From Candidatus Tayloriibacteriota bacterium (GTDB taxonomy: Bacteria > Patescibacteriota > Minisyncoccia > Phycocordibacterales > PALSA-1337), in contig JAQBRD010000026.1 in assembly GCA_028286665.1 (NCBI GenBank), positions 7,967-71,966 on the forward strand: 64,000 bases of DNA. Direction: 5' to 3'. Below are positions 6,719 to 45,285 of this stretch, in pieces; position 1 is the stretch's first letter; each line of letters starts with the position of its first letter. Under the pieces are notes generated by a model, which had not been told where the DNA came from, searched no databases, and saw only the letters and a list, made by a program, of their open reading frames with translations. The translations under genes were made by a program, and so were the position numbers.

Positions 6719-8191
6719 ATGGGCTATAAAGACTTCTTTAAGAGCAAACGCATAGCCGTAGTCGGCGTCGGGGAGCATGGTTCGATGCTGCCTGATATTC
6801 GCTTTCTCTTGAAGCTCAAAGCATGCGTATCCATATACGATATCCGAAGCAGGGATAAGCTCGGCGGCGATGAGTCTGGCAGCGTAGCGAAAGAGATCGA
6901 GAATATCTGCATCGCAGCGCAAATCGGCGCACCGGCGTCCTGCCAATTCGGCCTCATCGGACTCATGTCTGATGCTGCTGCTCGGAAAAGTTTCGAGAAT
7001 GAGCTGGCCGAATCGGACCTTATCATCCTCGCTCCGGACATCTCACGAAGTTCAGGTTTCCTGAAACAAGCGATCACCGCTGGCGTTCGCATCGAATATT
7101 CAGACACGCTCCTTTTCAAGCTCATTCCTTCGACGATGCTTGTCGGCGTCATGGGATCCGCTGGAAAATCCGCAGTCTCAGCGATGCTCTACGATATTCT
7201 CCGCCGAGCGGGGAGGAAAACCGTCGATGCTGAAACGGACGAGGTCCGAGAAGAGACGCGAACCGGCGCTGGCGTCTTTCATGTCGACGTCGAATCCGGA
7301 GATGTGCTTTCCGCGCTGAAAAAGATCAAGAAGGACGATATCATCATAGCTCGAATGCCGGAGCATCTCATGGATGAATATCGCATAGCGCGCATAACGC
7401 CGCATGTTGCGGTGCTGACGCATGTTTCCAAATCTCTTGCGGAAATGGGAAAGGAGTTTTTCGGCATCCTTGAATTTCAGACCTACAATTCTTTCATCGT
7501 CGCGAGCGACCTTGCCGTAGACATGCTGAAGAAAAGCGGAGGATTCCAGCCTCGGGCGAAGATCATCCGCACCAGGCCTGCGACGATACCGTCGGATTGG
7601 CATATCAGGATGCCGAATGCGCACGCGCGAGATAATGCCACTCTGGCTATCGAGGCCGCGCTTATTTTCAAGATCGAGCCGGACATCATCCATTTGGCGC
7701 TCGCTGACGTGAAGCAGCTCAAGGGCAGGCTTGAAAAGGTCCGGACCAGCAAGAACGGCGTCGAATTCTACAATGACTCGATGTCTGCGCGCCCCGAAGC
7801 GACGCTTGCCGCCCTGCGCGCACTTGGCGCTACCGGCGAGCGCCGGAGCATCGTCCTCATCATGGGCGGATCATATACCGGAGTTTCGTATGAGGAACTC
7901 ATCAGCCATATTCCGCAATATGTCTCGACTCTCATCCTCCTGCCTGGCAGCGGAACGCTTACCGAGCGGCAGGCTTTCGAAAAGCTCGCTGATGAGGAAC
8001 AGCCTATGCCAGGCAAGACGCATCCGAAGGTTTCATATGTGAAGACTATCGCTGAAGGGATGGCTGTCGCTCAAGCTTCTGCAGGAAAAGGCGACAGGGT
8101 GCTTTTCAGCCCCGCCTTTGATATTGTCGGTTTTGAATCGAAATTGGAGCGCGGCGAAGAATTCATTCGGCTCGTGAAAGGAATACATTAG
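6719..8191 (+). CDS. murD: Mur ligase, most like UDP-N-acetylmuramoylalanine--D-glutamate ligase.
   Basis: N-terminal Rossmann-like IAVVGVGEHG...RFLLKLKACV, P-loop-like VGVMGSAGKSAV, and MurD-like C-terminal YNDSMSARPEATLAAL. A TATAAT box lies upstream (~6704). Confidence 0.65.
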   Translation: MGYKDFFKSKRIAVVGVGEHGSMLPDIRFLLKLKACVSIYDIRSRDKLGGDESGSVAKEIENICIAAQIGAPASCQFGLIGLMSDAAARKSFENELAESDLIILAPDISRSSGFLKQAITAGVRIEYSDTLLFKLIPSTMLVGVMGSAGKSAVSAMLYDILRRAGRKTVDAETDEVREETRTGAGVFHVDVESGDVLSALKKIKKDDIIIARMPEHLMDEYRIARITPHVAVLTHVSKSLAEMGKEFFGILEFQTYNSFIVASDLAVDMLKKSGGFQPRAKIIRTRPATIPSDWHIRMPNAHARDNATLAIEAALIFKIEPDIIHLALADVKQLKGRLEKVRTSKNGVEFYNDSMSARPEATLAALRALGATGERRSIVLIMGGSYTGVSYEELISHIPQYVSTLILLPGSGTLTERQAFEKLADEEQPMPGKTHPKVSYVKTIAEGMAVAQASAGKGDRVLFSPAFDIVGFESKLERGEEFIRLVKGIH

Positions 8192-11252: not shown

Positions 11253-11978
11253 TTAGGTCTGATTGAGGGGAATGTAATGACGTGCGGTGCGCTTCGTATG
11301 ATGCTTCTTGTCTTCGACGATCTCGCCGTCCTTGATGACGATGATGCGGTCGGCATGCTCCGCGACGTCTGGCTCGTGGGTGATGAGGATGATGGTGTTT
11401 CCGAAATCCTTATTGAGCTTCTGGAATGTGCCGAGCACGATCTCGCCGGTCCTCGAGTCGAGGTTTCCGGTCGGTTCGTCGGCGAGTATGAGCGAGGGAT
11501 TGTTCACGAGGGCGCGCGCGATGGCGACGCGCTGGATCTGTCCGCCGGAAAGCTGATTCGAAAGATGGTGGAAATGCGATTCAGGAAGGCCGGCAGCGAG
11601 GAGCGAAGCCTTCGCTTTCTTCACGCGCTCTTCTTCGGGCATTCCTGCATAGACGAGGGGAAGCATGACGTTCCTGAGGACGGTCGTACGGGGAAGCAGG
11701 TTGAAGGATTGGAAGACGAAGCCGATCTTGTCCCTGCGTATTTCAGCGAGCCGGTCATCGGAAAGCGTCGACACGTCATGGCCGTCGAGGAAATATTTCC
11801 CGCTCGTCGGCGTATCGAGCGCTCCGAGGATGTGCATGAGCGTGGATTTGCCGGAACCCGAAGGTCCCATGATCGCCACGAATTCGCCGTCCTTCACCGT
11901 GAAAGAGACGCCTTTCAATGCCTTGAATTCGATGTCGCCGCTGTTGTATATTTTCGTTACGTTTTTTACTTCGATCAT
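11253..11978 (-). CDS. ABC transporter ATP-binding protein (MacB/LolD type).
   Basis: Walker A GPSGSGKST, signature LSGGQIQRVAIARAL, Walker B ILADEPTGNLD. Confidence 0.85.
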   Translation of the reverse strand: MIEVKNVTKIYNSGDIEFKALKGVSFTVKDGEFVAIMGPSGSGKSTLMHILGALDTPTSGKYFLDGHDVSTLSDDRLAEIRRDKIGFVFQSFNLLPRTTVLRNVMLPLVYAGMPEEERVKKAKASLLAAGLPESHFHHLSNQLSGGQIQRVAIARALVNNPSLILADEPTGNLDSRTGEIVLGTFQKLNKDFGNTIILITHEPDVAEHADRIIVIKDGEIVEDKKHHTKRTARHYIPLNQT

Positions 11979-12007
11979 GGATAGTGTATATGCTTCGCTG
12001 TCTGCTG

Positions 12008-13705
12008 CTATCTGCCCTGGAGTCCGCCGCGATTCGCTCCGCCTGCGCCGGCCGCCCGTCCGCCTACTGCGCTCAAGATGTTCGGAGCGGCCGCTGCCTT
12101 CGTTGCGCCTGTCGTGATGGTCCGGGTGACGATCTGTTCGCCTTCTTTCAAGCCGGAGGTTATTTCGGTGAGCGTATCATTGGCGATGCCGATTTCGACT
12201 GTGCGCTGCGTCGGCGGCGTCGATGACGAGGTGAACATCTCGACATACGAAGTCCCGTTCGCTGATTTCACTGCAGCATTCGGCACAGAGATGACATCGC
12301 TCTTGACGCCGGTGATGATCGCTGCGCTTACGCTCATGCCCGATTTCACGCGTTCATCCTGCGTGTCGAATGCGATCTTGACGCCATAGTTGACGACTCC
12401 TTGGGTGACAGTCCCCACGCCGTCGATCTCTGAAACGCTTCCGGTGATGCTCAGGCCGTCTATCGCATCGAACGTGAGGGTGACTTTGTCGCCGACTTTT
12501 ATCTTCGAGACATCTACTTCGTTGAGGGTGACGGTCGCGATCTTCTGCTTCGTGATGAGCGTCGAGACGCTTGCTCCGCTCGAGACAGTGTCGGTCAGCT
12601 TCACGCTGACTTTCGCGATGACTCCGTCGAATGGGGCGCGGATGAAACTGTCATCATATGCGTATTGCTTCTGCTTGAGGGACAGCTGCTGCGATGCGAC
12701 ATCAAGCGGGTCAGCTCCGCTCTGGAGCTTCTTCAGGGATTCGCTCTTTTCTGCGACTGAAGTGGCTGAACTTGCCAAACTCGACTTGTCATTTGCGATG
12801 GATGTGTTCGCGTTGGAGATATTCGTAAGATCCGAATTCACCTTGCTTGTCCAGCTGTTGACGCTGGTCTGGAATGACGCAAGTCCGCTCGTATTATATG
12901 TGTTCGCGCTCTGTATCGCATCGGCGACGGCCTTCGCGTCTTTCACTGCGATCGCGAGAGCTCGGACAGTCTCGAATGTTTCGATTGAAAGGCTCTCGAT
13001 CGATGTCGTGCCGCTCGATGCTGAAATCTGCTGATAGTGCGAAAGATTCGCATTGTATTTCCTCAGAGCGATGTCGAACGCGACTCCGGCCTGATCCCGA
13101 GTGTCCTTGATATTCTGGCCTACTGAACCGAGGTTCTGATCCGTGAGGAAGCCATTGCTCGAATAGAAAGATGTCCGCATTCCGTCGATGATCGAGGGCA
13201 TGTCCACGAAGGATCCCGCTGCGGCCGCAAGGGCATTGTTGTAATCATTCGCAAGATTGTCGGCAGACTTTCGCTGGGATTCGTTTGCTGCGGCGAGATC
13301 ATTCTGCTTCTGAAGAAGAGTTTCCGCATCCGCAGGCTTGGTGAGCTTCTGATATGCGATGCGCGCGCTCTCGAGATCGATCTCGGCGCTGCGGGCGTCG
13401 ACCCGCGCGATGAGGTCGCCCGCGGCGACTTCTTGTCCGCTCTTCACTCCGATATACACGATATTCCCGGAGGCTTTGCTCTTGAGATCGACTTCGTTCG
13501 AAGCTGAAACCTGCCCGCTGCCGCTGATTGAGGAGATGATGGTGTTTTTCTGCACGACTGCAGAGACATACGCAGTTTTTACTGCAGTGCCGGCATATGC
13601 ATTGATGATCTTGTAGCCGCCGAAGATGGCAGCTAGAACGATGACCGCGCTGAGTACTTTGTGCGCAGCGATGTATTCTCTGATGCTGTGGATGTGTTTC
13701 TTCAT
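12008..13705 (-). CDS. HlyD/MacA-family periplasmic adaptor (membrane-fusion protein) with long coiled coils.
   Basis: N-terminal TM (VLSAVIVLAAIFGG), biotinyl-lipoyl-like hairpin (DLIARVDARSAEIDLESARIAYQKL), extended coiled coil, and C-terminal beta-barrel. Sits upstream of the ABC pair. Confidence 0.7.
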   Translation of the reverse strand: MKKHIHSIREYIAAHKVLSAVIVLAAIFGGYKIINAYAGTAVKTAYVSAVVQKNTIISSISGSGQVSASNEVDLKSKASGNIVYIGVKSGQEVAAGDLIARVDARSAEIDLESARIAYQKLTKPADAETLLQKQNDLAAANESQRKSADNLANDYNNALAAAAGSFVDMPSIIDGMRTSFYSSNGFLTDQNLGSVGQNIKDTRDQAGVAFDIALRKYNANLSHYQQISASSGTTSIESLSIETFETVRALAIAVKDAKAVADAIQSANTYNTSGLASFQTSVNSWTSKVNSDLTNISNANTSIANDKSSLASSATSVAEKSESLKKLQSGADPLDVASQQLSLKQKQYAYDDSFIRAPFDGVIAKVSVKLTDTVSSGASVSTLITKQKIATVTLNEVDVSKIKVGDKVTLTFDAIDGLSITGSVSEIDGVGTVTQGVVNYGVKIAFDTQDERVKSGMSVSAAIITGVKSDVISVPNAAVKSANGTSYVEMFTSSSTPPTQRTVEIGIANDTLTEITSGLKEGEQIVTRTITTGATKAAAAPNILSAVGGRAAGAGGANRGGLQGR

Positions 13706-13713
13706 ATGGATTA

Positions 13714-14235
13714 TTATTTGATCGATGAGGTTGCTGCCATTATTCCCGCGGCTTCCGGCGGCGGAGGGAGGATGCGGATGAGCTTCGCTACGACCTGTCC
13801 TTGCTCGTTCGGCGTGCCGATGACGATGACCGTATCATCGACTGCGATATCTCCCGCAGCAACCGTATCGTGGAATTTTCGGATGATGGTGTTGTTGTCG
13901 ATGAGCACGGATTTCTCGATATTCTTCACGTCAGCGACGATGATGGTGGTCGAAGCAGTGCGCACGACCTTGCCGACTGCTCCATGAGATCCTGCGAAAT
14001 CATTCTGATCGAACGGGTTCATCATGCTGCCCATGCTGACGCGGCTCGGGGCTTTCTTCTCCCGGTCGAATGCTCGGTAATAACTTTCGCCTGATCGGTA
14101 TGAGAAGGCTGCCTTATGATATCCGACGAATACTCCGGCCTGGAAAATGACGAGGAGGACGATGATCAGGAGGATGCCGACGATGACGCCTTGGAATTTT
14201 TTCGACTTATGCAGATTATGGATATCGATGTTCAT
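13714..14235 (-). CDS. Single-pass membrane protein, hypothetical.
   Basis: TM helix GVIVGILLIIVLLVIFQAGVFVGY followed by a ~130-aa extracytoplasmic region. Lies between the sigma/anti-sigma candidates and macA. Confidence 0.4.
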   Translation of the reverse strand: MNIDIHNLHKSKKFQGVIVGILLIIVLLVIFQAGVFVGYHKAAFSYRSGESYYRAFDREKKAPSRVSMGSMMNPFDQNDFAGSHGAVGKVVRTASTTIIVADVKNIEKSVLIDNNTIIRKFHDTVAAGDIAVDDTVIVIGTPNEQGQVVAKLIRILPPPPEAAGIMAATSSIK

Positions 14236-14286
14236 GATGAAATTTTTTTGTAAATAAATATGCTCAAATATTCCGCGACGTAGCCG

Positions 14287-14658
14287 CTATGCCGCCAAGG
14301 CAACCGTGGTGTTCTTGATCGCTCTCGCTCCCGACCAGAGGAATACGCAGAACACGCCGAGCAGGATGGCGATGCCGAAGATCGGCAGCGAATCGACGAT
14401 CGAGAGCGTCAGCTCCTTCCAATAATCAAGCGCTCCGGTCCCGTCGGAAAGAGCGGCCGATACGTATTCGAATGCTCCTGATTGGGAGAGCGTGTCCTTC
14501 ACCGATGCGAAGCTGAATACCGCTGCTGAAAGCGAAATGATGCTGATCGATCCTGAGCAGATGCTCCGTCTGATGCAGGCGCTCTTTTCTGCCTTGCGAA
14601 TCCTGAGGATGATGATCTGCTCGAAATTATTCGGAAATGGGGTCGTAGAGTAGTTCAT
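14287..14658 (-). CDS. Small membrane protein immediately downstream of the ECF sigma factor. Candidate anti-sigma factor.
   Basis: 123 aa with a C-terminal TM (PIFGIAILLGVFCVFLW). The 8-nt gap after the sigma gene fits the usual sigma then anti-sigma order. No conserved anti-sigma motif was seen. Confidence 0.35.
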   Translation of the reverse strand: MNYSTTPFPNNFEQIIILRIRKAEKSACIRRSICSGSISIISLSAAVFSFASVKDTLSQSGAFEYVSAALSDGTGALDYWKELTLSIVDSLPIFGIAILLGVFCVFLWSGARAIKNTTVALAA

Positions 14659-30869: not shown

Positions 30870-31625
30870 ATGAAAAATAAAATCATCCTTCGTCGCTTCG
30901 CATACGCATGCATTGTCATTGTCGCCGTAGCGGCAATCATCAGCACTGTGCATCGCATCGGGACAAGAGAGCCTAAGCCGCGCACGATCATCGTCACGGT
31001 CATTCCGGGTTCGACGATCAACAGCATAGCGAAGCTCCTCAGCGGCTCCGGCCTTCCTTCGCGGGATTTTCTGAAGCTCTCGCTGCCGACATTCGATGCT
31101 TCGACGTCGAAATCTGCCGCTGGCTTCGGGCTTGAAGGATATCTGTATCCGGACACCTACAATTTCACATCAGGCGAAAGCGCGGAACAGATCATCCGGA
31201 CGATGACCGAGAATTTCGATGCGCACTTCCCGCAAGATTTGTTTGATCATCAGAAAGGGACCGTGCGCAGCAAGCGCGACATCGTGATCATGGCTTCGAT
31301 CCTTGAAAAGGAAGTTGCCACAGCAGAAGACAAGAGGATAGTTGCGGGAATCCTCTGGAAAAGGCTGGAGCATCGCTTGCCGCTGCAGGTGGACAGCACT
31401 ACGCATTATTTTTTAGCGCCGTCTGCGGGATTGGTATATAATACGTACCAAAGTGCAGGATTGCCTTTCGGACCGATAAGCGAACCGTCGTCCGAAAGCA
31501 TCAGGGCGGCCCTTGAGCCGACAGTAACGGATTATTGGTACTTTCTCAGTGATCGAAAAGGGAAAATATTCTATAGCCGGACTCTGAGCGAACACCTTAT
31601 CAACAAAGCTAAATATGTCGAATGA
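30870..31625 (+). CDS. Short MltG/YceG-like endolytic transglycosylase paralogue.
   Basis: N-terminal TM. YceG motifs EGYLYPDTYNF, RDIVIMASILEKEVATAEDKRIVAGILWKRL...LQVDSTTHY and GLPFGPISEPSSESIRAAL. Stop TGA (31623..31625) overlaps the A2M ATG (31622..31624) as ATGA. Confidence 0.6.
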   Translation: MKNKIILRRFAYACIVIVAVAAIISTVHRIGTREPKPRTIIVTVIPGSTINSIAKLLSGSGLPSRDFLKLSLPTFDASTSKSAAGFGLEGYLYPDTYNFTSGESAEQIIRTMTENFDAHFPQDLFDHQKGTVRSKRDIVIMASILEKEVATAEDKRIVAGILWKRLEHRLPLQVDSTTHYFLAPSAGLVYNTYQSAGLPFGPISEPSSESIRAALEPTVTDYWYFLSDRKGKIFYSRTLSEHLINKAKYVE

Positions 31626-34600
31626 CACTCAATAACAAAAGCATTTCCGTCATCGTAGCGTCGGTGCTGGTCATAGGAGCCGCTGTATTTTTCGGTCTCA
31701 TGCGTCCTTCAGGACATATTCCAGCTTTTGAATATCAGGCAGTGTATCGATTGGTTCCGGAGAATGTGTCGAAATCGGCAGCGATCAGGATCGAGCTGCC
31801 GGCCGGAGTGACAGGTCAGCCGATAGACGTCGCAAAGCAAGTGAGCTTCGAGCCGTCCATAAGCGGCCGCTGGCTGGAGGAAACAGAAGTCTCGGGAGCG
31901 GCAGCGACGTACGATGCTTCTCAGAAGAAGGCTGTCTTTTATTACAAGCCGAATAGTTCTCTCGATGTCGGAGTGCATCATGATGTCATTCTGGCAATGG
32001 CAGGCGATCAGTCGATCCGTTCCGATTTCATGACCGTCGCTGATCCTGAGGTGCGATCGATTCTTCCGCACGGAGATGATGAAGTCATGACGAATACGAA
32101 GATAAGCATCGTCTTCAATCGTCCGATGGTGCCGCTCAGCACGCTGGACCAGTTCGATTCTGGGAATCTGCCGGTGACTATCGCTCCGAAGACTCCCGGC
32201 CGATACAAATGGATAAGCACCAACACGCTCCAGTTCATACCGGAGGGCGGCCTCATCTCGTCTGCGCACTATACGGTGAAGGTCAATGCCGGCTTCCATT
32301 CTCTGGAAGGACTCGATGCGAAACCTGCCGAATCGTCTTTTACTACGATACATATGCGTTTCTGGTCGGACGGATCCGACAGCTTCGGCAACGATTCGAG
32401 GACGAATGCAGTCCGCGGATACAACCAGCCGCTGCTCGTCAGGTTCAATCAGGCGGTCGATCTGGACAAGACTAGGCCTTTCATCAAGGTGAGCGACAGC
32501 AACACTGGAGGAAGTTCCGTTCAATATACTCTGAAATATGCGTCCGCAACTGCTGACGGAAAGACGACCGAAGATCAGACGATGCTTGCGATATATCCTG
32601 CTGGCGGCGAACAGAGCAGCTGGGAGGCGGAACATCAGTACGTCGTGATTGTCGATCGCGCATTTCCGAAATCGGGAGGAGACATATCCGTGTCTGCGCC
32701 TGGCCGCTTCGCCTTCGTTATCGACAAGATATATTCAGGATTGGATGTCCTTTCGCCGAGAACCAATCAGGCAAGCCTTGATCGATTTGATCCGACAGGA
32801 CAGCTTGCGATCAATCTGTATGAGGCTATCGATCTTTCGAAAAGCAAAATCCGCGGGCCAGCGGTCGCTAAGGTCGAGTACGGCGAGAAGTGCCAGGAGA
32901 ATGTGACTCCTTGCGCCAAGGTTCCGGACAGGAAGCGGATACTCGTCTCATTTAATGCCGGTATTCTGCGTACTGGAGCTACGACCGAGGTGGTCTTGGA
33001 TAGCGTCATTTCTGATCTCGGCGCACAGCTTGCCTCGAAACCGCTGTCTATCAATCTCACGGTATATCAGCCGCTCTCGATCTACGGCATCACAGCCGAT
33101 GCGTATCTTGATAGGCTCGTGATCTGCTCCAATAACCCGATCGATACCGAAGGCAAGAGCAATACCATCTCCGCAGATCCTGGTTTCGTCGCGACTTCAT
33201 GGCAGAGGTCGTATCTCCATAGCGATTACGCGAGCAGCGCGGGCTGCGGAATCGGCAGGTTCGAAACGGCAGTATACGGATATTTGAACGGGCAGACGAA
33301 ATATCGCGCATCATTGAACGTGAAGGACATATTCGGCCAATCTGCCCAGGGCGCTTTTGACTTCGTCACGCGCCAGGTAACCAGTCGGGACTATCTGCTC
33401 CGCTCATATCAGGACGGAGAAGTGGTCACCGTTCCAGCCAAGACGAAGCTCACTTTCGCTGTCTCATATCTGCCTGAAGTCACTGCAACTGTCTGCAAGC
33501 TTTCGCCGTACGACCTGTATCGTCTCCGCAACGGCGAAAATCGCAATCCGAAGGAGCTCTGCAGCCAGGCGGTGCAGAAGACGATAGCTCTGAAGAATGA
33601 CGAATCTGGCCTGAAGGAATTCAGCGTGGATATCAAGGATTATTTCCCGCAGGCTGTCGGCAACTACGCGGTGCTGCTCTCAAGCCCGCTTATCACGGAG
33701 AACTCGGACTATTCGTGGAAATATTTCGATACGACCTACGTTTCAGTCACGAATCTGATCGTGACCGAAAAGCGCATCGATCCTCTCGATAACAATAATT
33801 ACGATTCGATCCGATTGACCGGCGAGCAGATAGGCAAGCTGCAGAATCTGTACTGGGTCATCGATGCTGCGACGCAGAAGCCGGTTTCTGGCGCATCCGT
33901 GAGTCTTTTCAAGAACGGCGCTGCAGTCGAAACCGCCACAACCGACGACAAGGGTCTGGCATTCCTCACTCCGGTAGCCGGAACCGAGATGGCCGTAGCG
34001 AGCTATGGAGCTGACGCTGCTGTCATCTCCGGATATTCGACAAAACTCAACTATGCCGATAATGCAGTGAATATCAAGAAGATGTATATCTACAGCGATA
34101 AGCCGATCTATCGTCCAGGACAGGAGGTCGATTTGAAGGGGCTGTATCGACTGGGGTATGACGGATATTACGAGCTGCCTCCGACGGAGCCGGTGACTTT
34201 GACCGTGATCGATTCCGGCGGCGATGTCGTGAAGACGGTGAATCTGACTCCGAATAATTTCGGCTCCATACATACGAGCTTCGTGCTGCCTGCGTCAGCC
34301 CGTCTCGGCAGTTATTCTGCGTGCGTGAAATACCAGTGCACGAACTTCAGCGTGCTTGATTATTCGCCGGCCGCTTTCAAGGTCACACTGCAGACGACCG
34401 ATAGCGAGTACTTCGTGGGGGACAAGCCCGAGGTAAATCTCGATGCTGCGTATTATTTCGGAGTTCCTGTTTCCAATGCGTCTGCCGAGTATCATGTGAG
34501 CACCCAGTATTATCATTTCGACAAGTACGCGAAGGAGTATTTCAATTTCAACAATCTATCCGACGATACGAGCAGCGAGGGATATTATTATGGCGATCGC

Positions 34601-37600
34601 TATGTCGGGGATGGGCATGCGGCTCTGGATGCAGGGGGTCACGGGATAATCAAGCCTGCGCTCGATGCGGCATCTCTCAAGGATCCGCAGGTAAGCAAGA
34701 TCGTCATCGTGGACGCTACGGTCAAGAATCAGCAAGGTCGGTCCGTCTCGTCTCAGAAGTCATTCGTGCTCAATGCTGCTCCGACCTATCTCGGCAGCAA
34801 GATCGAGGAGCCATTCGTAGCGTCAAGCGATGCGATCAAGCTCAAGCTCAAATCGGTGGATACGAGCGGCAACGGCAAATCTTCAGGCGCGAGCGCAGCG
34901 CTCTATCGGGTTTCGTGGGTGAACAACGGGGGCAATTCATCTGGAAGCGGTTCGGATTGGCAGCGGAAGCGCGAGCTCGTAAAGACCTTTTCCGTTACTA
35001 CGGACTCATCTGGCGACGGCGAGCTTTCATTGCCGCAGCAGACCGCAGGTCAGTACGAAGTGGACGTGACGTCACAGGGAACAGTCGGCAGCCGTTCGTG
35101 GTTCTATGTATACGGCGATCAGAATGTCTCGGTGCGCTCAAGCGATGACACCTCGCTCGAACTTGTGCCGAGCAGTGCGACCGTCAAGACGGGCGATACG
35201 GCCGAAATCCTGATCAAGGTTCCGGAAGGCGCTGGGAAGGCCTTGGTCACCATCGAGCGCGGCAAGGTCTTCAGCTATGAGGTGATGGATATCACCGGAA
35301 CGATGAATCATTTCAAATTCCCGGTGACGGACCAGTACTATCCGAATGTATATGTAAGCGTGACCGTCTATTCGCCGAACCGATCCGTGAGGTTCGGCAG
35401 CTATTCCTTCGCCGTCGACAGCGGTCAGAAGAAGCTCAATATCACCGTGCAATCAGATAAGAAGTTCTACAATCCCGGAGATCCAGTGACGCTCCAGCTC
35501 ACTGCAAAAGACGAGGCTGGTCAGCCTGTAGCGTCGGAAATATCGCTCGCAGTCGTCGATATGAGCGTCCTTGCGCTTCGAGGCAACCCGAAGAAGGATC
35601 CGCTCTCGTCATTCTACGGCCATGTCTACCTTACTGTCGCAACCTATTCGAATTTCAAGAATCTGCTGAAGCAGGTCGAAAGAAAATCAGAGGACGGCAA
35701 GGGCGGCAGCGGCGGCGATTCGAAGAATCAGAAGAGCAGAGGCATCTTCAAAGAAGTCGCTTTCTGGAAGCCTGACATCATCACTGATGCTGCTGGAAAT
35801 GCTACGGTTAAGTTCATGCTTCCTGACAATCTGACGACGTGGCAGGCGGAAGTCGTCGGCATCACCGCTGATACTCATGTAGGAGCAGCCTACAGCGAGT
35901 TCACGACGAACAAGACACTGATGGTCGTTCCGCTCAAGCCTCGTTTCGTCCTGCCAGGCGACCGGTTCTCACTCGGTGCGACCGTATTCAATAACAGCAA
36001 GGTTGATTTCAATGGCATAGTGAAGCTCAAGGCTGATTCGCTCGTTGTTTCGAAAGCATCTCTGGAGAAAAATGTCGGCATCAAAGCCGGAAGCTCTCAG
36101 ACAATATATTGGGACGCGGCAGTTCCATACTCCGTGCAGGCTGGAACGATGAGCTATTCGATTTCGGCTGGAGGTCAGGATCTGACTGACGCGGTCGACG
36201 ATGAGCTGATCGTGAATGAGAATACCGCATATGAAGTCACTGCGACAGCAGGACAGACAGATACGTCTGCTCGCGAAGCGCTGTACGTGCCTTCTACGGT
36301 CATTCCTGGACAAGGAGGCCTCACGCTCAAGAGTTCGGCGACATTGGCCGTATATCTGGGAGACGCTCTCAAATATATGCTGGATTATCCGTATGAGTGC
36401 ACGGAGCAGATATCAAGCCGCATCGAGACGTTGGCACTCATGAAGAATGCAGGAGCTCTTGTCGATGTTCAAAAGAAGAAAGACGCTGACAAGATGGTAT
36501 TGTCCGGCCTCCAGTCGATATATGATCGTCAGAATCCTGACGGAGGCTTCAAGCTCTGGCCAGAAAGCCGAACCTCGAGCTACTGGGGAACTTTGGAAGC
36601 CATCAAGGCCTTCGATGTGCTGCAGAGATCCGGCTACTCGATAGATGCATCAGTCTGGGATAAGAGCGCAGCGTACGTGCACGATCAGTACTTCGCGCAA
36701 AATATCAATCGCGTCTTTCTCGATCCTGTCGACATGGCCGCGGCTTTGTTTACGAGACCTCGATACGTCGGACAGGAGGATGTGCGCCAGGCATTCGAGC
36801 AGGCGGCGCAAAATGCGATGAAAGATCCGAAAATTCCTAACGGCAAGCTCATCACGCTGAGCCAGATCATGCATCGGTATCAGCTCATGCCGTCACTCCA
36901 GGGCAAGACAGACCTCATGCTCGAGAACCGCATCGTCGTGGATTCTCGCGGCAGCTTCCTCGATATCGGGACGTCCGATTCATATGCTGATACCGCTATC
37001 AGCAATACCGCGCGCTTCATAAGCCTCTTGTCGGAGAACAAGCAGTCGAATGTCGAGCTGCCGAATCTCCTGCGCTGGCTCACGAGATCGAGGTCCAAAG
37101 ACGGCGCTTGGGGGTCGACGGAGAATACCTTGGCTGTCGTACAGGCCTTCACCAGCTATCTGAAATGGCAGCCAGAGACATCCGCGACATTCACTCTGGA
37201 CACCAGCCTGAACGGGACTCAGATCGATCATTTCGATTTCAAACCCGACACTATCCTGACCCAGCTCTCAAAGATCATACCGATGGCCGCCCTGCATTCA
37301 GGAGCTTTGAACACGGTTTCATTCGCGAAATCATCAGTCAAAGGCACCGATGTCGGAAAGATCTATTACGATATGAGCTTCAAGTATTATCTGCCGGCAG
37401 GCACGCTCGGTCCTCGTGATGAAGGCTTCGCGATACAGAGGAATTTCTACGCCTTGTCGGACAAGGACGGAGTGAAGCCGATGCTGAAAGCGAAAGTGGG
37501 CGATGTCATGCGCGAGCACATCGAGATCACGGTGCCAGCGACTCGAAATCAGGTCGCTCTCGAGGACTTCATACCTGCGGGCATGGAAATCGTCGATACG

Positions 37601-37864
37601 AGTCTTGCGACTGAAGACAAGACGCTCGACCAGGCCGATGCTACCGTCAAAAATCCGCAGCTCTGGCCTGATCACAAGGAGTGGCGCGACGATCGCGCGT
37701 TCCTGTACTTCGATCAGCTGTCTCCAGGAACGTACCAGTTCGACTATCTCGTTCGAGCTCTTGTCCCGGGAACCTATACGCAGCTGCCCGCGAACGTATC
37801 AGAGATGTATGTGCCGGAGAACTTCGGCCGAAGCGGTGCAGGCCTATTTACTATCGAGCAGTAA
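31622..37864 (+). CDS. Giant alpha-2-macroglobulin-family thioester-containing protein, N-terminally TM-anchored (2080 aa).
   Basis: YfhM/ECAM-like N-terminal MG domain (ISIVFNRPMVPL...GRYKWISTNTLQFIPEGGL...YTVKVNAGF). A2M region (FKEVAFWKPDIITDAAGNATVKFMLPDNLTTWQAEVVGIT). Thioester motif DYPYECTEQ (Cys codon at 36398). Alpha-helical TED region (GGFKLWPE...SYWGT). N-terminal TM VIVASVLVIGAAVFFGLM. Confidence 0.85.
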   Translation: MTLNNKSISVIVASVLVIGAAVFFGLMRPSGHIPAFEYQAVYRLVPENVSKSAAIRIELPAGVTGQPIDVAKQVSFEPSISGRWLEETEVSGAAATYDASQKKAVFYYKPNSSLDVGVHHDVILAMAGDQSIRSDFMTVADPEVRSILPHGDDEVMTNTKISIVFNRPMVPLSTLDQFDSGNLPVTIAPKTPGRYKWISTNTLQFIPEGGLISSAHYTVKVNAGFHSLEGLDAKPAESSFTTIHMRFWSDGSDSFGNDSRTNAVRGYNQPLLVRFNQAVDLDKTRPFIKVSDSNTGGSSVQYTLKYASATADGKTTEDQTMLAIYPAGGEQSSWEAEHQYVVIVDRAFPKSGGDISVSAPGRFAFVIDKIYSGLDVLSPRTNQASLDRFDPTGQLAINLYEAIDLSKSKIRGPAVAKVEYGEKCQENVTPCAKVPDRKRILVSFNAGILRTGATTEVVLDSVISDLGAQLASKPLSINLTVYQPLSIYGITADAYLDRLVICSNNPIDTEGKSNTISADPGFVATSWQRSYLHSDYASSAGCGIGRFETAVYGYLNGQTKYRASLNVKDIFGQSAQGAFDFVTRQVTSRDYLLRSYQDGEVVTVPAKTKLTFAVSYLPEVTATVCKLSPYDLYRLRNGENRNPKELCSQAVQKTIALKNDESGLKEFSVDIKDYFPQAVGNYAVLLSSPLITENSDYSWKYFDTTYVSVTNLIVTEKRIDPLDNNNYDSIRLTGEQIGKLQNLYWVIDAATQKPVSGASVSLFKNGAAVETATTDDKGLAFLTPVAGTEMAVASYGADAAVISGYSTKLNYADNAVNIKKMYIYSDKPIYRPGQEVDLKGLYRLGYDGYYELPPTEPVTLTVIDSGGDVVKTVNLTPNNFGSIHTSFVLPASARLGSYSACVKYQCTNFSVLDYSPAAFKVTLQTTDSEYFVGDKPEVNLDAAYYFGVPVSNASAEYHVSTQYYHFDKYAKEYFNFNNLSDDTSSEGYYYGDRYVGDGHAALDAGGHGIIKPALDAASLKDPQVSKIVIVDATVKNQQGRSVSSQKSFVLNAAPTYLGSKIEEPFVASSDAIKLKLKSVDTSGNGKSSGASAALYRVSWVNNGGNSSGSGSDWQRKRELVKTFSVTTDSSGDGELSLPQQTAGQYEVDVTSQGTVGSRSWFYVYGDQNVSVRSSDDTSLELVPSSATVKTGDTAEILIKVPEGAGKALVTIERGKVFSYEVMDITGTMNHFKFPVTDQYYPNVYVSVTVYSPNRSVRFGSYSFAVDSGQKKLNITVQSDKKFYNPGDPVTLQLTAKDEAGQPVASEISLAVVDMSVLALRGNPKKDPLSSFYGHVYLTVATYSNFKNLLKQVERKSEDGKGGSGGDSKNQKSRGIFKEVAFWKPDIITDAAGNATVKFMLPDNLTTWQAEVVGITADTHVGAAYSEFTTNKTLMVVPLKPRFVLPGDRFSLGATVFNNSKVDFNGIVKLKADSLVVSKASLEKNVGIKAGSSQTIYWDAAVPYSVQAGTMSYSISAGGQDLTDAVDDELIVNENTAYEVTATAGQTDTSAREALYVPSTVIPGQGGLTLKSSATLAVYLGDALKYMLDYPYECTEQISSRIETLALMKNAGALVDVQKKKDADKMVLSGLQSIYDRQNPDGGFKLWPESRTSSYWGTLEAIKAFDVLQRSGYSIDASVWDKSAAYVHDQYFAQNINRVFLDPVDMAAALFTRPRYVGQEDVRQAFEQAAQNAMKDPKIPNGKLITLSQIMHRYQLMPSLQGKTDLMLENRIVVDSRGSFLDIGTSDSYADTAISNTARFISLLSENKQSNVELPNLLRWLTRSRSKDGAWGSTENTLAVVQAFTSYLKWQPETSATFTLDTSLNGTQIDHFDFKPDTILTQLSKIIPMAALHSGALNTVSFAKSSVKGTDVGKIYYDMSFKYYLPAGTLGPRDEGFAIQRNFYALSDKDGVKPMLKAKVGDVMREHIEITVPATRNQVALEDFIPAGMEIVDTSLATEDKTLDQADATVKNPQLWPDHKEWRDDRAFLYFDQLSPGTYQFDYLVRALVPGTYTQLPANVSEMYVPENFGRSGAGLFTIEQ

Positions 37865-39724
37865 TGTCCGAGCGGTCTCAGGCTCTTCCGCGGAGTTGAT
37901 ATCGTCGAACGAGAAGGGCGCATGCCGATCGTATGCTGTCTGCTGCATGAGCTGCATCACCTTGCTCCAGATCTCTCCCGCTCCGCTCTGTCCCGACAGG
38001 GACTTGGTCGGCTTGTTGTCGGAATTTCCGACCCATACGCCGACGACGTAATCCGCCGTGTATCCGACTACCAAGCTATCTCGATAGTCATCCGAGGTTC
38101 CGGTCTTGAGCGCATAGTTCTGATAGGGCAGATTGAGGTCGCTCACATAGCCGAATTGATCGATGCCGATATATCGGTCAGACAGGATCTTGGTTATGAG
38201 CTCCGTATATTGCGGATCGATGACCTTCTTTTCTTCTCCCGGGAAGAAAAGCCTGTTGATATTCTGATCGGAAAAAAGCCGCACCGGCTCGAGCTTTCCC
38301 TTATTCGGGAAGATGCTGTAGAAGTGAACGAGCTGCGGCAGCGTCATGTCGATCGTGCCGAGCGCTGCGCCGAGCTGGTGATCGTGGACTTTCTTGATAT
38401 CGGCATAGCCGAGCTCGCCGAGAAAATTGCCGAACGCGTCGAGTCCGACGAACCTAAGCGTCTTGATCGCCGGAATGTTGATGCTGTTCGCCAGGGCATA
38501 TGCTGCAGTGATGCGCCCGTGATATTTCATATCATAATTCTTCGGATACAAGGTTCTGCCGTCGAAAGTCACATATCTGTATTCCGCATCATCGATGAGG
38601 GAATCAGGACGCGCGCCCATCTCGAAAGCTTTGGCGTAGACGAATGGCTTTATGGTCGAAGCGACCTGCCTCGGCTTGGTGAGCATGTTGATCTGCTGGC
38701 CGAAATCTTCCGCAGCAGGATCGGCGCTTCCGATCATGCTGAGTATCTCGTTGGAAGGCAGCTTCATGATGATGACTGCCATGTTGTGCGCATCGCGGCT
38801 CGCCAGAGACGGCTGCGCATCTTCGACGATGGCACGCACTTTATCCGCAAGCTCTTTGTCGATGGAAACCCGCACGGTCTTCATGGGCAAGTCCTTGGAC
38901 GCATATGATCGCAGTTCGAAACTGTCTTTCTGCGCCAGAAACTTTTTGAGATTCCTTGATGCGGTCTCCGGCGATACGAAGCCGTCTTTCGCTACTCGGA
39001 TATTCAAAGCTGAAGCCAGTCGCATCGCAGAGTCAATATTGTTTCCGAGAAGGGGATTGTTGTAGCTCGGACTGCCGAGCGAGGAGAGGAGCTGGAAAAT
39101 CTCCGCTTCAGACAGGCTGTCCGCCGACTTGGAGAAGTACGCTTGGCTGGCCGTCTCGACACCCTGGATATGGTTTCCGAAGTAGACGGTATTGCAGTAT
39201 TTGAGCAGCACGTCCTTCTTTCCCAGGAAAAGGTCGAGCGGCAGTACCGACAGCAGCTCGGTGGATTTGTTCATGATCGTCCGGTCATTTTCCTGTTCGA
39301 GCAGGAGCTTGGTGAGCTGCTGCTCGATCGTGCTCGCACCCCGATGGCTGCCGATTCCTGCTTTGGACAGCATGAGTTCGCCGATGCTCACCGGATTCAC
39401 TCCCGGATGCAGATAAAAGAATCGATCTTCCTTTCGGAGCAGCAGCTTTGAGAATATCTCCGGCGTGCTGGTGGCATAGAGCGCATAATTGCCTTTCGCA
39501 TTCGGCATGAGCATGAGCAAGCGGCCATTCCTGTCTATGAAGCTGACTGATTGGTTTTGATCATAGAGCTGCACGAGCTTCTGCCTGTCGTATGCGCCGT
39601 ATATGAGGAAAGCGCATATGATGACGATGCTTCCCAAACAGATGGTTGTGCGCGCGCGGCGGAGTTTCATATTTGTCAGCGAATTTTTGGTTTTTTCAGT
39701 ATACCTCGAAATGAAAGCTTTCAA
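37844..39724 (-). CDS. pbpC: Class A penicillin-binding protein (glycosyltransferase GT51 + transpeptidase), PbpC-like.
   Basis: GT51 motifs EDRFYLHPGVNP, GASTIEQQLTK and RKLKE. Transpeptidase motifs STIKPF (SxxK), SIN (SxN) and KTGTS. N-terminal TM anchor. The 3' end overlaps the A2M 3' end by 21 nt (convergent). Confidence 0.8.
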   Translation of the reverse strand: MKAFISRYTEKTKNSLTNMKLRRARTTICLGSIVIICAFLIYGAYDRQKLVQLYDQNQSVSFIDRNGRLLMLMPNAKGNYALYATSTPEIFSKLLLRKEDRFFYLHPGVNPVSIGELMLSKAGIGSHRGASTIEQQLTKLLLEQENDRTIMNKSTELLSVLPLDLFLGKKDVLLKYCNTVYFGNHIQGVETASQAYFSKSADSLSEAEIFQLLSSLGSPSYNNPLLGNNIDSAMRLASALNIRVAKDGFVSPETASRNLKKFLAQKDSFELRSYASKDLPMKTVRVSIDKELADKVRAIVEDAQPSLASRDAHNMAVIIMKLPSNEILSMIGSADPAAEDFGQQINMLTKPRQVASTIKPFVYAKAFEMGARPDSLIDDAEYRYVTFDGRTLYPKNYDMKYHGRITAAYALANSINIPAIKTLRFVGLDAFGNFLGELGYADIKKVHDHQLGAALGTIDMTLPQLVHFYSIFPNKGKLEPVRLFSDQNINRLFFPGEEKKVIDPQYTELITKILSDRYIGIDQFGYVSDLNLPYQNYALKTGTSDDYRDSLVVGYTADYVVGVWVGNSDNKPTKSLSGQSGAGEIWSKVMQLMQQTAYDRHAPFSFDDINSAEEPETARTLLLDSK

Positions 39725-42990: not shown

Positions 42991-44301
42991 ATGTTTGAAG
43001 AGTTTATTATTTGGTCCCCGATCTGGCTCACCGCGCTCGTAGGCTCCATCATCGGGCTGGTCTATTTCATCCCGACTGTCGCGCGCGAGTATGCCGGCTT
43101 ATTCGAGCAGTCCATCGCGATGCTCCTCATCACCATGCCGTATTGGCTGCCGGTTCTCGGCATCATCATCTTCTGGAATACATGGGTGGTCTTCGTCCGC
43201 GGACGCTACTTGGCAGGCATCAAATGGTCGCTGCTCGAATTGAAGCTTCCGCTCGAGATCACGAAAACCCCGCTCGCCATGGAGACGTTCCTCATGTCAT
43301 TGCATCAGGGAGGAAGCGAGGCGACGTTCATCGACCGCTGGTGGAAAGGCCAGACTCGCGGCATCTTCTCGCTCGAGATCATCTCCGTCGAAGGGCAGAT
43401 CAAGTTCCTCATCTATACGCAGACGAAGTTCCGCGGCATGATCGAAGCCGCCCTCTATGCGCAGTATCCCGACATCGAGATCCATGAAGCAGTCGATTAT
43501 ACGCACTCGGTCCATTTCGACCCGAAGGAAAGCGACATGTACGTCATCGACTACAAATTCACCGCGCCGGATCCGTATCCGATCAATACGTACGTTGAAT
43601 ACGGCATCGACGATACGAATGTCGATGAGGAGAACAAGATCGATCCGATCAACCACATGCTCGAATTCATGGGCTCGATCGGAACGAATCAGCAGTGCTG
43701 GTTCCAGCTCATCATGCGCCTGCACAAGGACGATCAGCATAAGCCGGGAACGCTCTTCGGCAAGTGGGACAAATTCAAGGATGACGCCAAGAAGGAGATC
43801 GAGAAGATCCGAGCGAGCGCCGTGCAGAAGACCGGCGACGACAAGATCAAGTTCCCGAATCCGACGAAGGGCGAGCAGGAGCGCATCGCCGCGATCGAAC
43901 GGAAGCTCTCGAAGCTTCCGTTCGACGTGGGACTGCGCGGCATCTATTTCGCGAAGAAGGAATTCTTCAATGGCGGAAATATCGGATCGCTCCGCACGAT
44001 GCTCCGCGCGTACAGCACCGGCCATCTGAACGGCTTCAAGCCGATGAACTGGCTCAACGACTTCGACTACCCATGGCAGGATTACAAGGATATGCGAAAG
44101 AATGCCCTCAAGCGCGAAGGCCTCGAGGCATACAAGCGTCGTTCTTATTTTTACCCTCCATTCGTCGGAAAATTGAATCTCGTCATGAACACCGAGGAGA
44201 TCGCTTCCATCTTCCATCTTCCTGGCCAGGTCGCGAAGACGCCGACATTGCCGCGACTTCCTTCGAAACGTTCGGAAGCTCCTGGAAATCTTCCAATATA
44301 A
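42991..44301 (+). CDS. Membrane protein (two N-terminal TM helices plus a ~330-aa cytoplasmic domain), hypothetical.
   Basis: TM helices IWLTALVGSIIGLVYFIP and LLITMPYWLPVLGIIIFWNTWVVFV. No motif recognised in the soluble domain. Separated from the downstream mltG by 6 nt. Confidence 0.45.
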   Translation: MFEEFIIWSPIWLTALVGSIIGLVYFIPTVAREYAGLFEQSIAMLLITMPYWLPVLGIIIFWNTWVVFVRGRYLAGIKWSLLELKLPLEITKTPLAMETFLMSLHQGGSEATFIDRWWKGQTRGIFSLEIISVEGQIKFLIYTQTKFRGMIEAALYAQYPDIEIHEAVDYTHSVHFDPKESDMYVIDYKFTAPDPYPINTYVEYGIDDTNVDEENKIDPINHMLEFMGSIGTNQQCWFQLIMRLHKDDQHKPGTLFGKWDKFKDDAKKEIEKIRASAVQKTGDDKIKFPNPTKGEQERIAAIERKLSKLPFDVGLRGIYFAKKEFFNGGNIGSLRTMLRAYSTGHLNGFKPMNWLNDFDYPWQDYKDMRKNALKREGLEAYKRRSYFYPPFVGKLNLVMNTEEIASIFHLPGQVAKTPTLPRLPSKRSEAPGNLPI

Positions 44302-44307
44302 TCCGTC

Positions 44308-45285
44308 ATGCGTTTTCGAACCTTTATTTGCATAGTGTTGGTGATCGTCGTGCTCGCATTCGCAGCAGTCGCTGCTTTCGCAGTGCTCTCATCTTCGCCG
44401 AGTGATTTTCCGATAGGCGCTACCGTCAATATTCCGAGGAATGCGACGATTTCCGAAATCGCAACTTCGCTCAAAGAACGCTCATTCATCCGATCGGAGG
44501 ATGCCTTCAAGGTTGCCGCGCTCATGCTCGGAGGCAGCAACGGGCTCCTGTCGGGCGACTATCTCTTCGATCGTCCGACGAATGTCTGGAAGCTCGTCGA
44601 ACGCATCACGAAAGGCGATCAGGGGATCGCTCGGGTGAAAGTGACATTTCCTGAAGGCATCACGGTGAAGGAGATGGGGAATATCGTCGCGTCGCAGGTG
44701 AGCGGGTTCGATGCTGCGGGATTCGTCGCGCGCGCATCGACATCGGAAGGATACCTCTTTCCTGATACGTATTATTTCTTCAGCAATGCCAAGCCGCTGG
44801 ACGTCGTTCGAGTCATCGCCGCCGAATTCGATCAGAAATATGCGACGTTGCTGAGCGATCCTGCCATCGTCGCCGGGACGATGTATGGCAAGACGAAACG
44901 CGAGATCGTCACCATGGCTTCGATCCTCGAAGACGAAGTGAAGAGCGCCCAGGACCGCTCGATCGTTTCAGGGATTCTCTGGAAGCGACTGGCAAAGGGC
45001 ATGCCGCTTCAGGTCGATGCTCCGTTTGGCTATATTCTCGGCAAATCCACCGAGGATCTGACGCTCGATGATCTCAAGACGAATTCTCCATACAATACCT
45101 ATTTGAATAAAGGCTTGCCGCCGACGCCGATCAACAACCCCGGCCTCGAAGCGCTCCGCGCGACGATGATGCCGACATCCACGCCGTACTGGTTCTATCT
45201 TTCTGATAAGAAGGGCGCGATCCATTATGCGAAGACATATGCGGAGCATCTCGCGAATAAAGAAAACTATCTCAACGGTAAATAG
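44308..45285 (+). CDS. mltG: Endolytic murein transglycosylase MltG (YceG family).
   Basis: N-terminal TM. YceG motifs EGYLFPDTYYF, REIVTMASILEDEVKSAQDRSIVSGILWKRLAKGMPLQVDAPFGY and GLPPTPINNPGLEALRA. Confidence 0.8.
   Translation: MRFRTFICIVLVIVVLAFAAVAAFAVLSSSPSDFPIGATVNIPRNATISEIATSLKERSFIRSEDAFKVAALMLGGSNGLLSGDYLFDRPTNVWKLVERITKGDQGIARVKVTFPEGITVKEMGNIVASQVSGFDAAGFVARASTSEGYLFPDTYYFFSNAKPLDVVRVIAAEFDQKYATLLSDPAIVAGTMYGKTKREIVTMASILEDEVKSAQDRSIVSGILWKRLAKGMPLQVDAPFGYILGKSTEDLTLDDLKTNSPYNTYLNKGLPPTPINNPGLEALRATMMPTSTPYWFYLSDKKGAIHYAKTYAEHLANKENYLNGK

Follow-up and report, generated by a model that had tools for sequence, protein, structure and literature searches.

A CTEQ thioester motif within the predicted thioester domain of a giant alpha-2-macroglobulin-family protein from a Candidatus Tayloriibacteriota bacterium

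The locus described here raises the question whether a Cys-Thr-Glu-Gln (CTEQ) tetrapeptide in a giant open reading frame (ORF) of the alpha-2-macroglobulin (A2M) family marks a thioester that is still in use in a member of the Patescibacteria. The ORF lies in a stretch of 64,000 nucleotides, called the window below, which covers positions 7,967 to 71,966 of contig JAQBRD010000026.1 (GenBank assembly GCA_028286665.1) of a Candidatus Tayloriibacteriota bacterium. A preliminary description of the window had taken four codons of this ORF to encode an intact thioester motif, and had predicted a thioester-type A2M that traps proteases covalently rather than a degenerate homologue. Alignment, a predicted thioester domain (TED) and the residues of the thioester pocket support that prediction. 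They suggest that the ORF probably encodes a membrane-anchored, monomeric covalent protease trap of the ECAM/SaA2M type (Type I), in which an internal beta-cysteinyl-gamma-glutamyl thioester most likely links Cys1593 and Gln1596.

Inspection and re-translation of the sequence placed the codons tgc acg gag cag at window positions 36398..36409 on the plus strand, where they encode C1593-T-E-Q1596 in the context DYPYECTEQISSRIETL. The distance from the start codon (36398-31622 = 4776 = 3 x 1592) makes the Cys residue 1593 of ORF 31622..37864 (plus strand, 2080 aa), which is the only long ORF covering these codons; codons, frame and context were thus as previously noted. The earlier term pentapeptide needs correction: CxEQ has four residues, the classical pentapeptide being GCGEQ, and in this protein a Glu takes the place of the usual Gly before the Cys. 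C.EQ occurs once in the 2080-aa protein, at residue 1593, and 0.015 occurrences are predicted from the composition, with nine Cys in total. ORFs on the opposite strand over the motif region (e.g. 35969-36313, minus strand) lie inside the strongly supported A2M ORF and are probably spurious.

A phmmer search against PDB sequences aligned 'ypyecteq' of the window protein onto 'ypygcleq' of Salmonella SaA2M (4u48) and E. coli ECAM/YfhM (4rtd). Because CTEQ falls on the CLEQ of both proteins in this alignment, the position is, as judged by sequence, homologous to the known bacterial thioester site and not a product of chance. The comparison with ECAM and Salmonella A2M had been proposed as a check, and it also verified the earlier statement that ECAM carries CLEQ at the same site. 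By sequence, the nearest solved structures were SaA2M 4u48 (3.9e-31) and ECAM/YfhM 4rtd, 5a42 and 4ziq (~2e-30). Seven Pfam matches above the curated cutoffs were found in the ORF, in the canonical A2M order: Big_5 (residues 141-242), bMG3 (a weak match), MG2 (820-905), A2M_BRD (1179-1319), A2M (1380-1468), TED_complement (1582-1688) and bMG10 (1935-2066). The bait-region domain A2M_BRD, at 35156..35578 (plus strand), scored 81.2 bits (E = 1.2e-22).

The TED was delimited as an all-helical toroid at residues 1575-1853 (36344..37180, plus strand) by AlphaFold2 (AF2) modelling, Foldseek and hhalign. For structure prediction, the alignment was reduced to 35 sequences. The AF2 model of residues 1575-1854 reached a predicted local distance difference test score (pLDDT) of 93.1 and a predicted template modelling score (pTM) of 0.91, and contained 13 helices. 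C1593 directly precedes the second helix, which is opened by the motif. All 50 listed Foldseek matches of this model in the PDB were thioester domains (TMq 0.66-0.78), among them those of C4Adg, ECAM, A2ML1, human A2M, SaA2M, CD109, TEP1, C3d and C5. In the model, the motif is therefore located within a TED-like alpha/alpha toroid; a position outside such a fold had been named beforehand as evidence against the thioester reading. A larger model of residues 1374-2080 (707 residues; pLDDT 86.9, pTM 0.71) had SaA2M (E = 1.7e-35) and native ECAM as its best PDB folds, followed by CD109, A2ML1, C5 and C3. Comparison of the family profile with human C3d by hhalign gave a probability of 97% and placed CTEQ on CGEQ, a lead that agrees with the fold search.

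As described by Fyfe et al., the pocket that protects the bacterial thioester consists of the TED tyrosines Tyr1175 and Tyr1177 of SaA2M (Y-P-Y-G-C) and of Met1625 and Tyr1626 ('EXMY') of the C-terminal MG domain (CTMG), so that two of the four pocket residues are supplied by the TED itself, and a conserved RDDR motif maintains the contact between TED and CTMG (PMC4498604). In the window protein, the first pair corresponds to Y1589 and Y1591 of YPYECTEQ (residues 1589-1596; 36386..36409, plus strand), the octapeptide that also holds Cys1593 and Gln1596. The CTMG, the cap over the thioester in native SaA2M, was recognised at residues 1935-2066 (37424..37819, plus strand) by the Pfam bMG10 match (108.4 bits) and by alignment with the ECAM CTMG. 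Within it, RDDR is found at residues 2022-2025 (37685..37696, plus strand; 'kewRDDRafly' on ECAM 'iefRDDRfvaa'), and E-M-Y at residues 2061-2063 (37802..37810, plus strand; 'vsEMYvpen' on ECAM 'vESMYvpqw') contains Met2062 and Tyr2063, equivalent to SaA2M Met1625 and Tyr1626. Alignment with ECAM thus revealed that all four pocket residues (Y1589, Y1591, M2062 and Y2063) and R2022-D-D-R2025 are retained, with the E of 'EXMY' offset by one position (SEMY here, ESMY in ECAM).

The same residues were followed through 120 homologues. C-x-E-Q was present at the homologous alignment column in 104 of them, and the bearers had Y or F at the 1589 column without exception (104/104) and Y at the 1591 column in 100 cases. 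In the clade of the window protein itself (homologues P0001-P0007 and P0014), the motif was exactly CTEQ in 8/8 members, sequences with an identity of only 50-65% over their C-terminal 760 residues. At the CTMG column of window residue 2063, Tyr or Phe was found in 103 of the 104 bearers vs 6 of the 16 non-bearers (Fisher 7e-10, kinship ignored); the nearest group of non-bearers probably counts as one event in this statistic. This group, a neighbouring subclade, no longer has the motif, with EGTEQ, ESSDHV, KSSGHI, DSTREI, RNAENL and KNADYV in its place, and the shielding Tyr of the CTMG is replaced by Asn or Asp in P0008-P0013 and P0015 ('WEMNNPENF'). One of these, P0012, which falls within the subclade, still has CAEQ and has already lost the Tyr, suggesting from sequence that the shielding Tyr was lost before the motif. 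The joint loss of CxEQ and the CTMG Tyr indicates that the Tyr is maintained because a thioester needs shielding. Furthermore, the motif decays fast after abandonment of the thioester, so that survival of a CTEQ without use would be unexpected in the clade of the window protein. The orthologues with a dismantled thioester are a natural comparison for this protein. Regarding the conservation of Cys and Gln in orthologues, by which the motif was to be judged, the expectation thus held for the family at large and for the window protein's own clade, but not for the one neighbouring subclade.

A downstream catalytic His that tunes thioester reactivity had also been suggested as something to look for. 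C3, C4B and A2ML1 react with hydroxyls by means of a His some 115 residues past the Cys, which forms an acyl-imidazole; the other alphaM protease inhibitors, ECAM included, lack this His (PMC7864068). No such His was detected in the family: in the profile-profile alignment with C3d, the C3 His loop (APVIHQEMIGG) was placed opposite a gap in the profile of the family, and no consensus His occurred anywhere in the family TED. Complement-like, hydroxyl-reactive chemistry was therefore rejected. Since the catalytic His is absent, the reactivity is predicted to be directed to amines (lysine), as in A2M and ECAM, and not to hydroxyls; the sequence thus predicts amine-directed protease capture rather than complement-like chemistry. 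Monomeric alphaM inhibitors such as ECAM inhibit only via covalent conjugation (PMC7864068), and because they need it, an intact motif is functionally meaningful.

Upstream of the TED, alignment with SaA2M and ECAM located a Gly/Lys-rich bait-like linker, QVERKSEDGKGGSGGDSKNQKSRGI (residues 1351-1375; 35672..35746, plus strand), which is presumed to be the site of protease cleavage. It is situated between the bait-region domain and the A2M domain and was aligned by phmmer with 'grlaalrfggdgddlkrggkppv' of SaA2M/ECAM; the ECAM bait is Arg923-Asn963 (PMC4498604). By analogy, cleavage would occur at residues ~1351-1375. The N-terminus carries a hydrophobic segment, ISVIVASVLVIGAAVFFGL (residues 8-26; 31643..31699, plus strand; Kyte-Doolittle mean 2.67 over 19 residues), predicted to be a membrane anchor, and neither a lipobox nor a Cys was found in the N-terminus of the window protein. 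Of 98 homologues, 75 had a comparable segment and only 2 a pattern resembling a lipobox. To judge from these sequences, the protein is probably tethered by a transmembrane anchor and not as an inner-membrane lipoprotein like ECAM, and the tethering would probably be equivalent to that of ECAM despite the other mode of anchoring.

These elements can be combined into a mechanism modelled on the known members of the family. The thioester would form autocatalytically upon folding and, in the native state, would be buried between the TED (Y1589, Y1591) and the CTMG (M2062, Y2063 and RDDR). A protease cutting the basic Gly/Lys-rich linker (~residues 1351-1375) would abolish the TED-CTMG contact, releasing the TED and exposing the thioester to a lysine of the protease, whose amine could then attack it; the protease would end up covalently tethered and inhibited. 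The analysis demonstrates the motif with its homology, fold and conservation, the pocket residues and the gene context, while thioester formation, bait cleavage, covalent trapping and the biological target are inferred.

Two cell-wall genes adjoin the A2M gene. Upstream, a short YceG/MltG-like gene (30870..31625, plus strand; 251 aa) matched PF02618 with 173 bits and TIGR00247 MltG with 133 bits (cutoff 103.4), and its 3' end runs 4 nt into the start of the A2M gene. Downstream lies a gene for a class A penicillin-binding protein (PBP) with Transgly and Transpeptidase domains (37844..39724, minus strand), assigned by Pfam and by NCBIfam TIGR02073 PBP_1c. It is nearest to PBP1c, scoring 363.7 bits with the PBP_1c model, which is below the cutoff of 494.2, vs 289.6 bits with the PBP1A family, and it covers positions 8-549 of the 728 of the PBP_1c model, with the C-terminal third missing. 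The pairing of A2M with PBP1c is given as a hallmark of Type I bacterial A2Ms (PMC5764988). In the window, however, the pair is convergent, with 21 nt shared by the two coding 3' ends (37844-37864), an arrangement that rules out a shared operon and leaves no space for an intergenic terminator; it hints that the 3' transcripts of a2m and pbp overlap. A scan for promoters and terminators around the locus gave fewer matches than shuffled controls.

The arrangement is not peculiar to the window. Convergent overlapping a2m/pbp pairs were also found in four of five relatives' loci, those of P0005 (L001, L002; overlap at L001 12256-12273), P0011 (L003, L004; L003 11758-11776), P0053 (L005 11590-11606) and P0035 (L007 11275-11288), so that the overlap, 14-21 nt with the window included, has been retained tail to tail in Patescibacteria with A2M proteins no more than 35-52% identical to that of the window. 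YceG precedes the A2M gene in L001, L002, L006 and L007. On the cell envelope, where the protein is predicted to sit, it could protect that envelope from foreign proteases, a function that fits the PBP1c-like and MltG-like cell-wall neighbours.

Several observations weigh against a working thioester trap. The neighbouring subclade without CxEQ (P0008-P0011, P0013 and P0015) is 50-53% identical to the window protein, and the gene of P0011, the sole member of the subclade with a locus examined, lies in the equivalent locus and adjoins the equivalent PBP gene (L003/L004). With orthologues lacking CxEQ in the same locus, the thioester is not essential to the function of the locus. The Pfam TED_complement match taken alone is weak (30.5 bits). 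The residue at -1 to the Cys is a Glu, where 94 of the 104 CxEQ-bearing homologues have Gly; E or D at this position recurs alongside an intact CxEQ in several independent lineages. Finally, the linker is short and unusually conserved in the family, while eukaryotic baits are hypervariable. Its consensus among ~100 Patescibacteria homologues is K-G-G-(G/S)-G ... K-K-(K)-R-G-x-F-K-(D/E)-T-A-F-W, with a column entropy among the lowest of the protein, and this conserved short linker may reflect a narrow range of target proteases.

What else could the motif be? Coincidence, that is, a tetrapeptide in a non-homologous or non-coding context, has a negligible probability and was rejected, given the expected count, the homologous column in SaA2M/ECAM and in most homologues, and the 2080-aa ORF with its seven Pfam matches. 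It is unlikely, though a more serious objection, that CTEQ is a relic without a functional thioester, in a protein that traps proteases non-covalently like the Type II protein MagD or has only a structural role in the envelope. MagD provides a precedent for trapping without a thioester (PMC5764988), and relics do occur in this lineage, as CxEQ has gone from the sister subclade in the same locus and P0012 has CAEQ without the shielding Tyr; the unusual Glu at -1 points in the same direction. On the other hand, the window protein and its whole clade have kept C, E, Q and every pocket residue despite 35-50% overall divergence, abandonment of the thioester is accompanied by quick decay of both motif and Tyr (ESSDHV, KSSGHI, DSTREI, RNAENL), and monomeric alphaMs need covalent capture (PMC7864068).

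The thioester could also be active but serve another end, with the activated TED binding an epibiont covalently to the host-cell surface as an adhesin, or tagging foreign surfaces in the manner of complement. Patescibacteria are generally held to lack an outer membrane, and hence the A2M ectodomain would face the exterior; the predicted N-terminal membrane anchor without a lipobox and the ~740 residues of additional N-terminal Ig-like domains, including Big_5, are in keeping with such a surface role, as is the emphasis that papers on epibiotic Patescibacteria place on giant surface proteins for host attachment (PMC8080830, PMC13059738). We nevertheless regard this reading as quite improbable. 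The C3/C4B/A2ML1-type His for reactivity with hydroxyls, i.e. glycans, is absent (PMC7864068); the full apparatus of a protease trap is retained, comprising the bait-region domain, the bait-like linker and the lock formed by RDDR and EMY of the CTMG; linkage to PBP1c is a hallmark of the protease-inhibitor class; and the authors of the Vampirococcus study interpret their own A2M-domain proteins as defensive (PMC8080830).

The predicted covalent protease trap is closest to ECAM/YfhM (4rtd, 4ziq, 5a42) and SaA2M (4u48). CxEQ is at the same TED position in all of them, within Y-P-Y-x-C-x-E-Q with both tyrosines; the CTMG has RDDR and Met-Tyr, and the domain order is MG2, BRD, A2M, TED and bMG10. 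A Gly-rich basic bait-like linker, the lack of a catalytic His and an adjacent PBP1c-like gene are further common features, and these proteins are the top PDB matches by sequence as well as by whole-fragment fold. However, identity over the C-terminal region is only ~18-20%. The window protein has 2080 aa vs 1653 aa in ECAM (PMC3328433), and it aligns from residue ~810 onto chain residues ~340-372, leaving ~430 extra N-terminal residues that include Big_5. Further differences are a predicted transmembrane anchor in place of the lipobox and a Glu, not a Gly, preceding the Cys. The PBP gene converges on the A2M gene with an overlap of the 3' ends and is not co-transcribed with it; its PBP_1c score does not reach the equivalog cutoff. 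Finally, the protein comes from a Patescibacteria metagenome-assembled genome (MAG) and not from a proteobacterium.

Type II A2Ms, such as P. aeruginosa MagD and E. coli YfaS, are likewise large bacterial A2M folds with multiple MG domains and a bait region, and many of the homologues have been labelled automatically as 'YfaS (alpha-2-macroglobulin family)' by JGI. CxEQ is absent from Type II proteins, whose genes belong to a six-gene mag operon (PMC5764988). Assignment to this type was ruled out by CTEQ and by the lack of a mag operon partner among the Pfam-scanned flanking genes (YceG, PBP, G6PD, YchF and a sigma factor). With human A2M, A2ML1, CD109, insect TEP1 and C3/C4, the window protein shares the TED fold, CxEQ at the same helix start and the logic of bait followed by thioester, and in its missing catalytic His it resembles A2M and not C3, C4B or A2ML1. 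It is only 13-18% identical to these eukaryotic proteins, shows no anaphylatoxin, C345C or receptor-binding features, is predicted to be membrane-anchored and has a pocket of the bacterial pattern. The giant membrane proteins Vamp_6_203 (2368 aa) and Vamp_19_245 (1895 aa) of Vampirococcus lugosii contain A2M domains and were read as a defence against host proteases (PMC8080830). Like the window protein, they are large predicted membrane proteins of candidate phyla radiation bacteria, a likeness by description only, and they were described without mention of a thioester (PMC8080830).

The protein is a new member of a known family of protease traps, a well-supported but ordinary assignment. NCBI holds a 100% identical protein, 'MAG: hypothetical protein JWO73_729 [Candidatus Taylorbacteria bacterium]' (P0001), together with ~100 full-length homologues of 2050-2270 aa from Patescibacteria/Parcubacteria MAGs, several of which are named 'alpha-2-macroglobulin family protein'. 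The family assignment was thus already known from automatic annotation of close relatives; an NCBIfam scan of the A2M protein returned no match and hence no equivalog name. Specific to this case are the predicted transmembrane anchor, the ~430 extra N-terminal residues, the convergent PBP1c-like partner with MltG, the Glu at -1, and a sister lineage devoid of thioester and shielding Tyr. The finding does not change the understanding of how such proteins work. It extends the thioester type of bacterial A2M, whose characterised members are so far all from Gram-negative enterobacteria, to an ultra-small candidate-phyla bacterium that probably lacks an outer membrane, and the residues of the whole thioester lock are conserved in this patescibacterial host, together with a PBP1c-like neighbour. 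It also offers a concrete candidate for how epibiotic Patescibacteria shield their exposed envelope from proteases.

A more far-reaching proposal, which we put forward only tentatively and hold to be rather doubtful, is that in Patescibacteria, with their presumed lack of an outer membrane and hence of a periplasm, the thioester A2M, the PBP1c-like synthase and the extra MltG-like enzyme constitute a conserved, surface-exposed module guarding the envelope, with a2m and pbp locked as a convergent overlapping pair. The thioester would then be used outside the cell, against proteases of hosts or competitors or even to couple the epibiont covalently to surface proteins of its host. If so, the subclade that has repeatedly lost the thioester would have changed its target or lifestyle.

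Some minor observations were made along the way. The N-terminal third of the A2M protein (window 31622-33850, residues 1-~740) has no counterpart in the ECAM/SaA2M alignments and Big_5 (141-242) as its sole Pfam match; several conserved Cys pairs are seen in this part of the family consensus, e.g. YGEKC...C.K and CSN.P. In a Staskawiczbacteria relative (L006), two genes are inserted between A2M and PBP at 11582-14305, breaking the conserved overlap: one is an N6-adenine methyltransferase/Eco57I-type restriction-modification gene and the other a 244-aa gene with no Pfam match on record. In the window, an ORF of 436 aa (42991-44301), which has a membrane segment at its N-terminus and no Pfam match, is situated between a gene for a sigma-70-region-4/HARE-HTH protein and a second YceG/MltG paralogue. 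This full-length paralogue (44308-45285, 325 aa) lies 6.4 kb past the A2M stop and spans profile positions 1-274, and the A2M-linked YceG/MltG (251 aa) spans Pfam profile positions 68-275 only.

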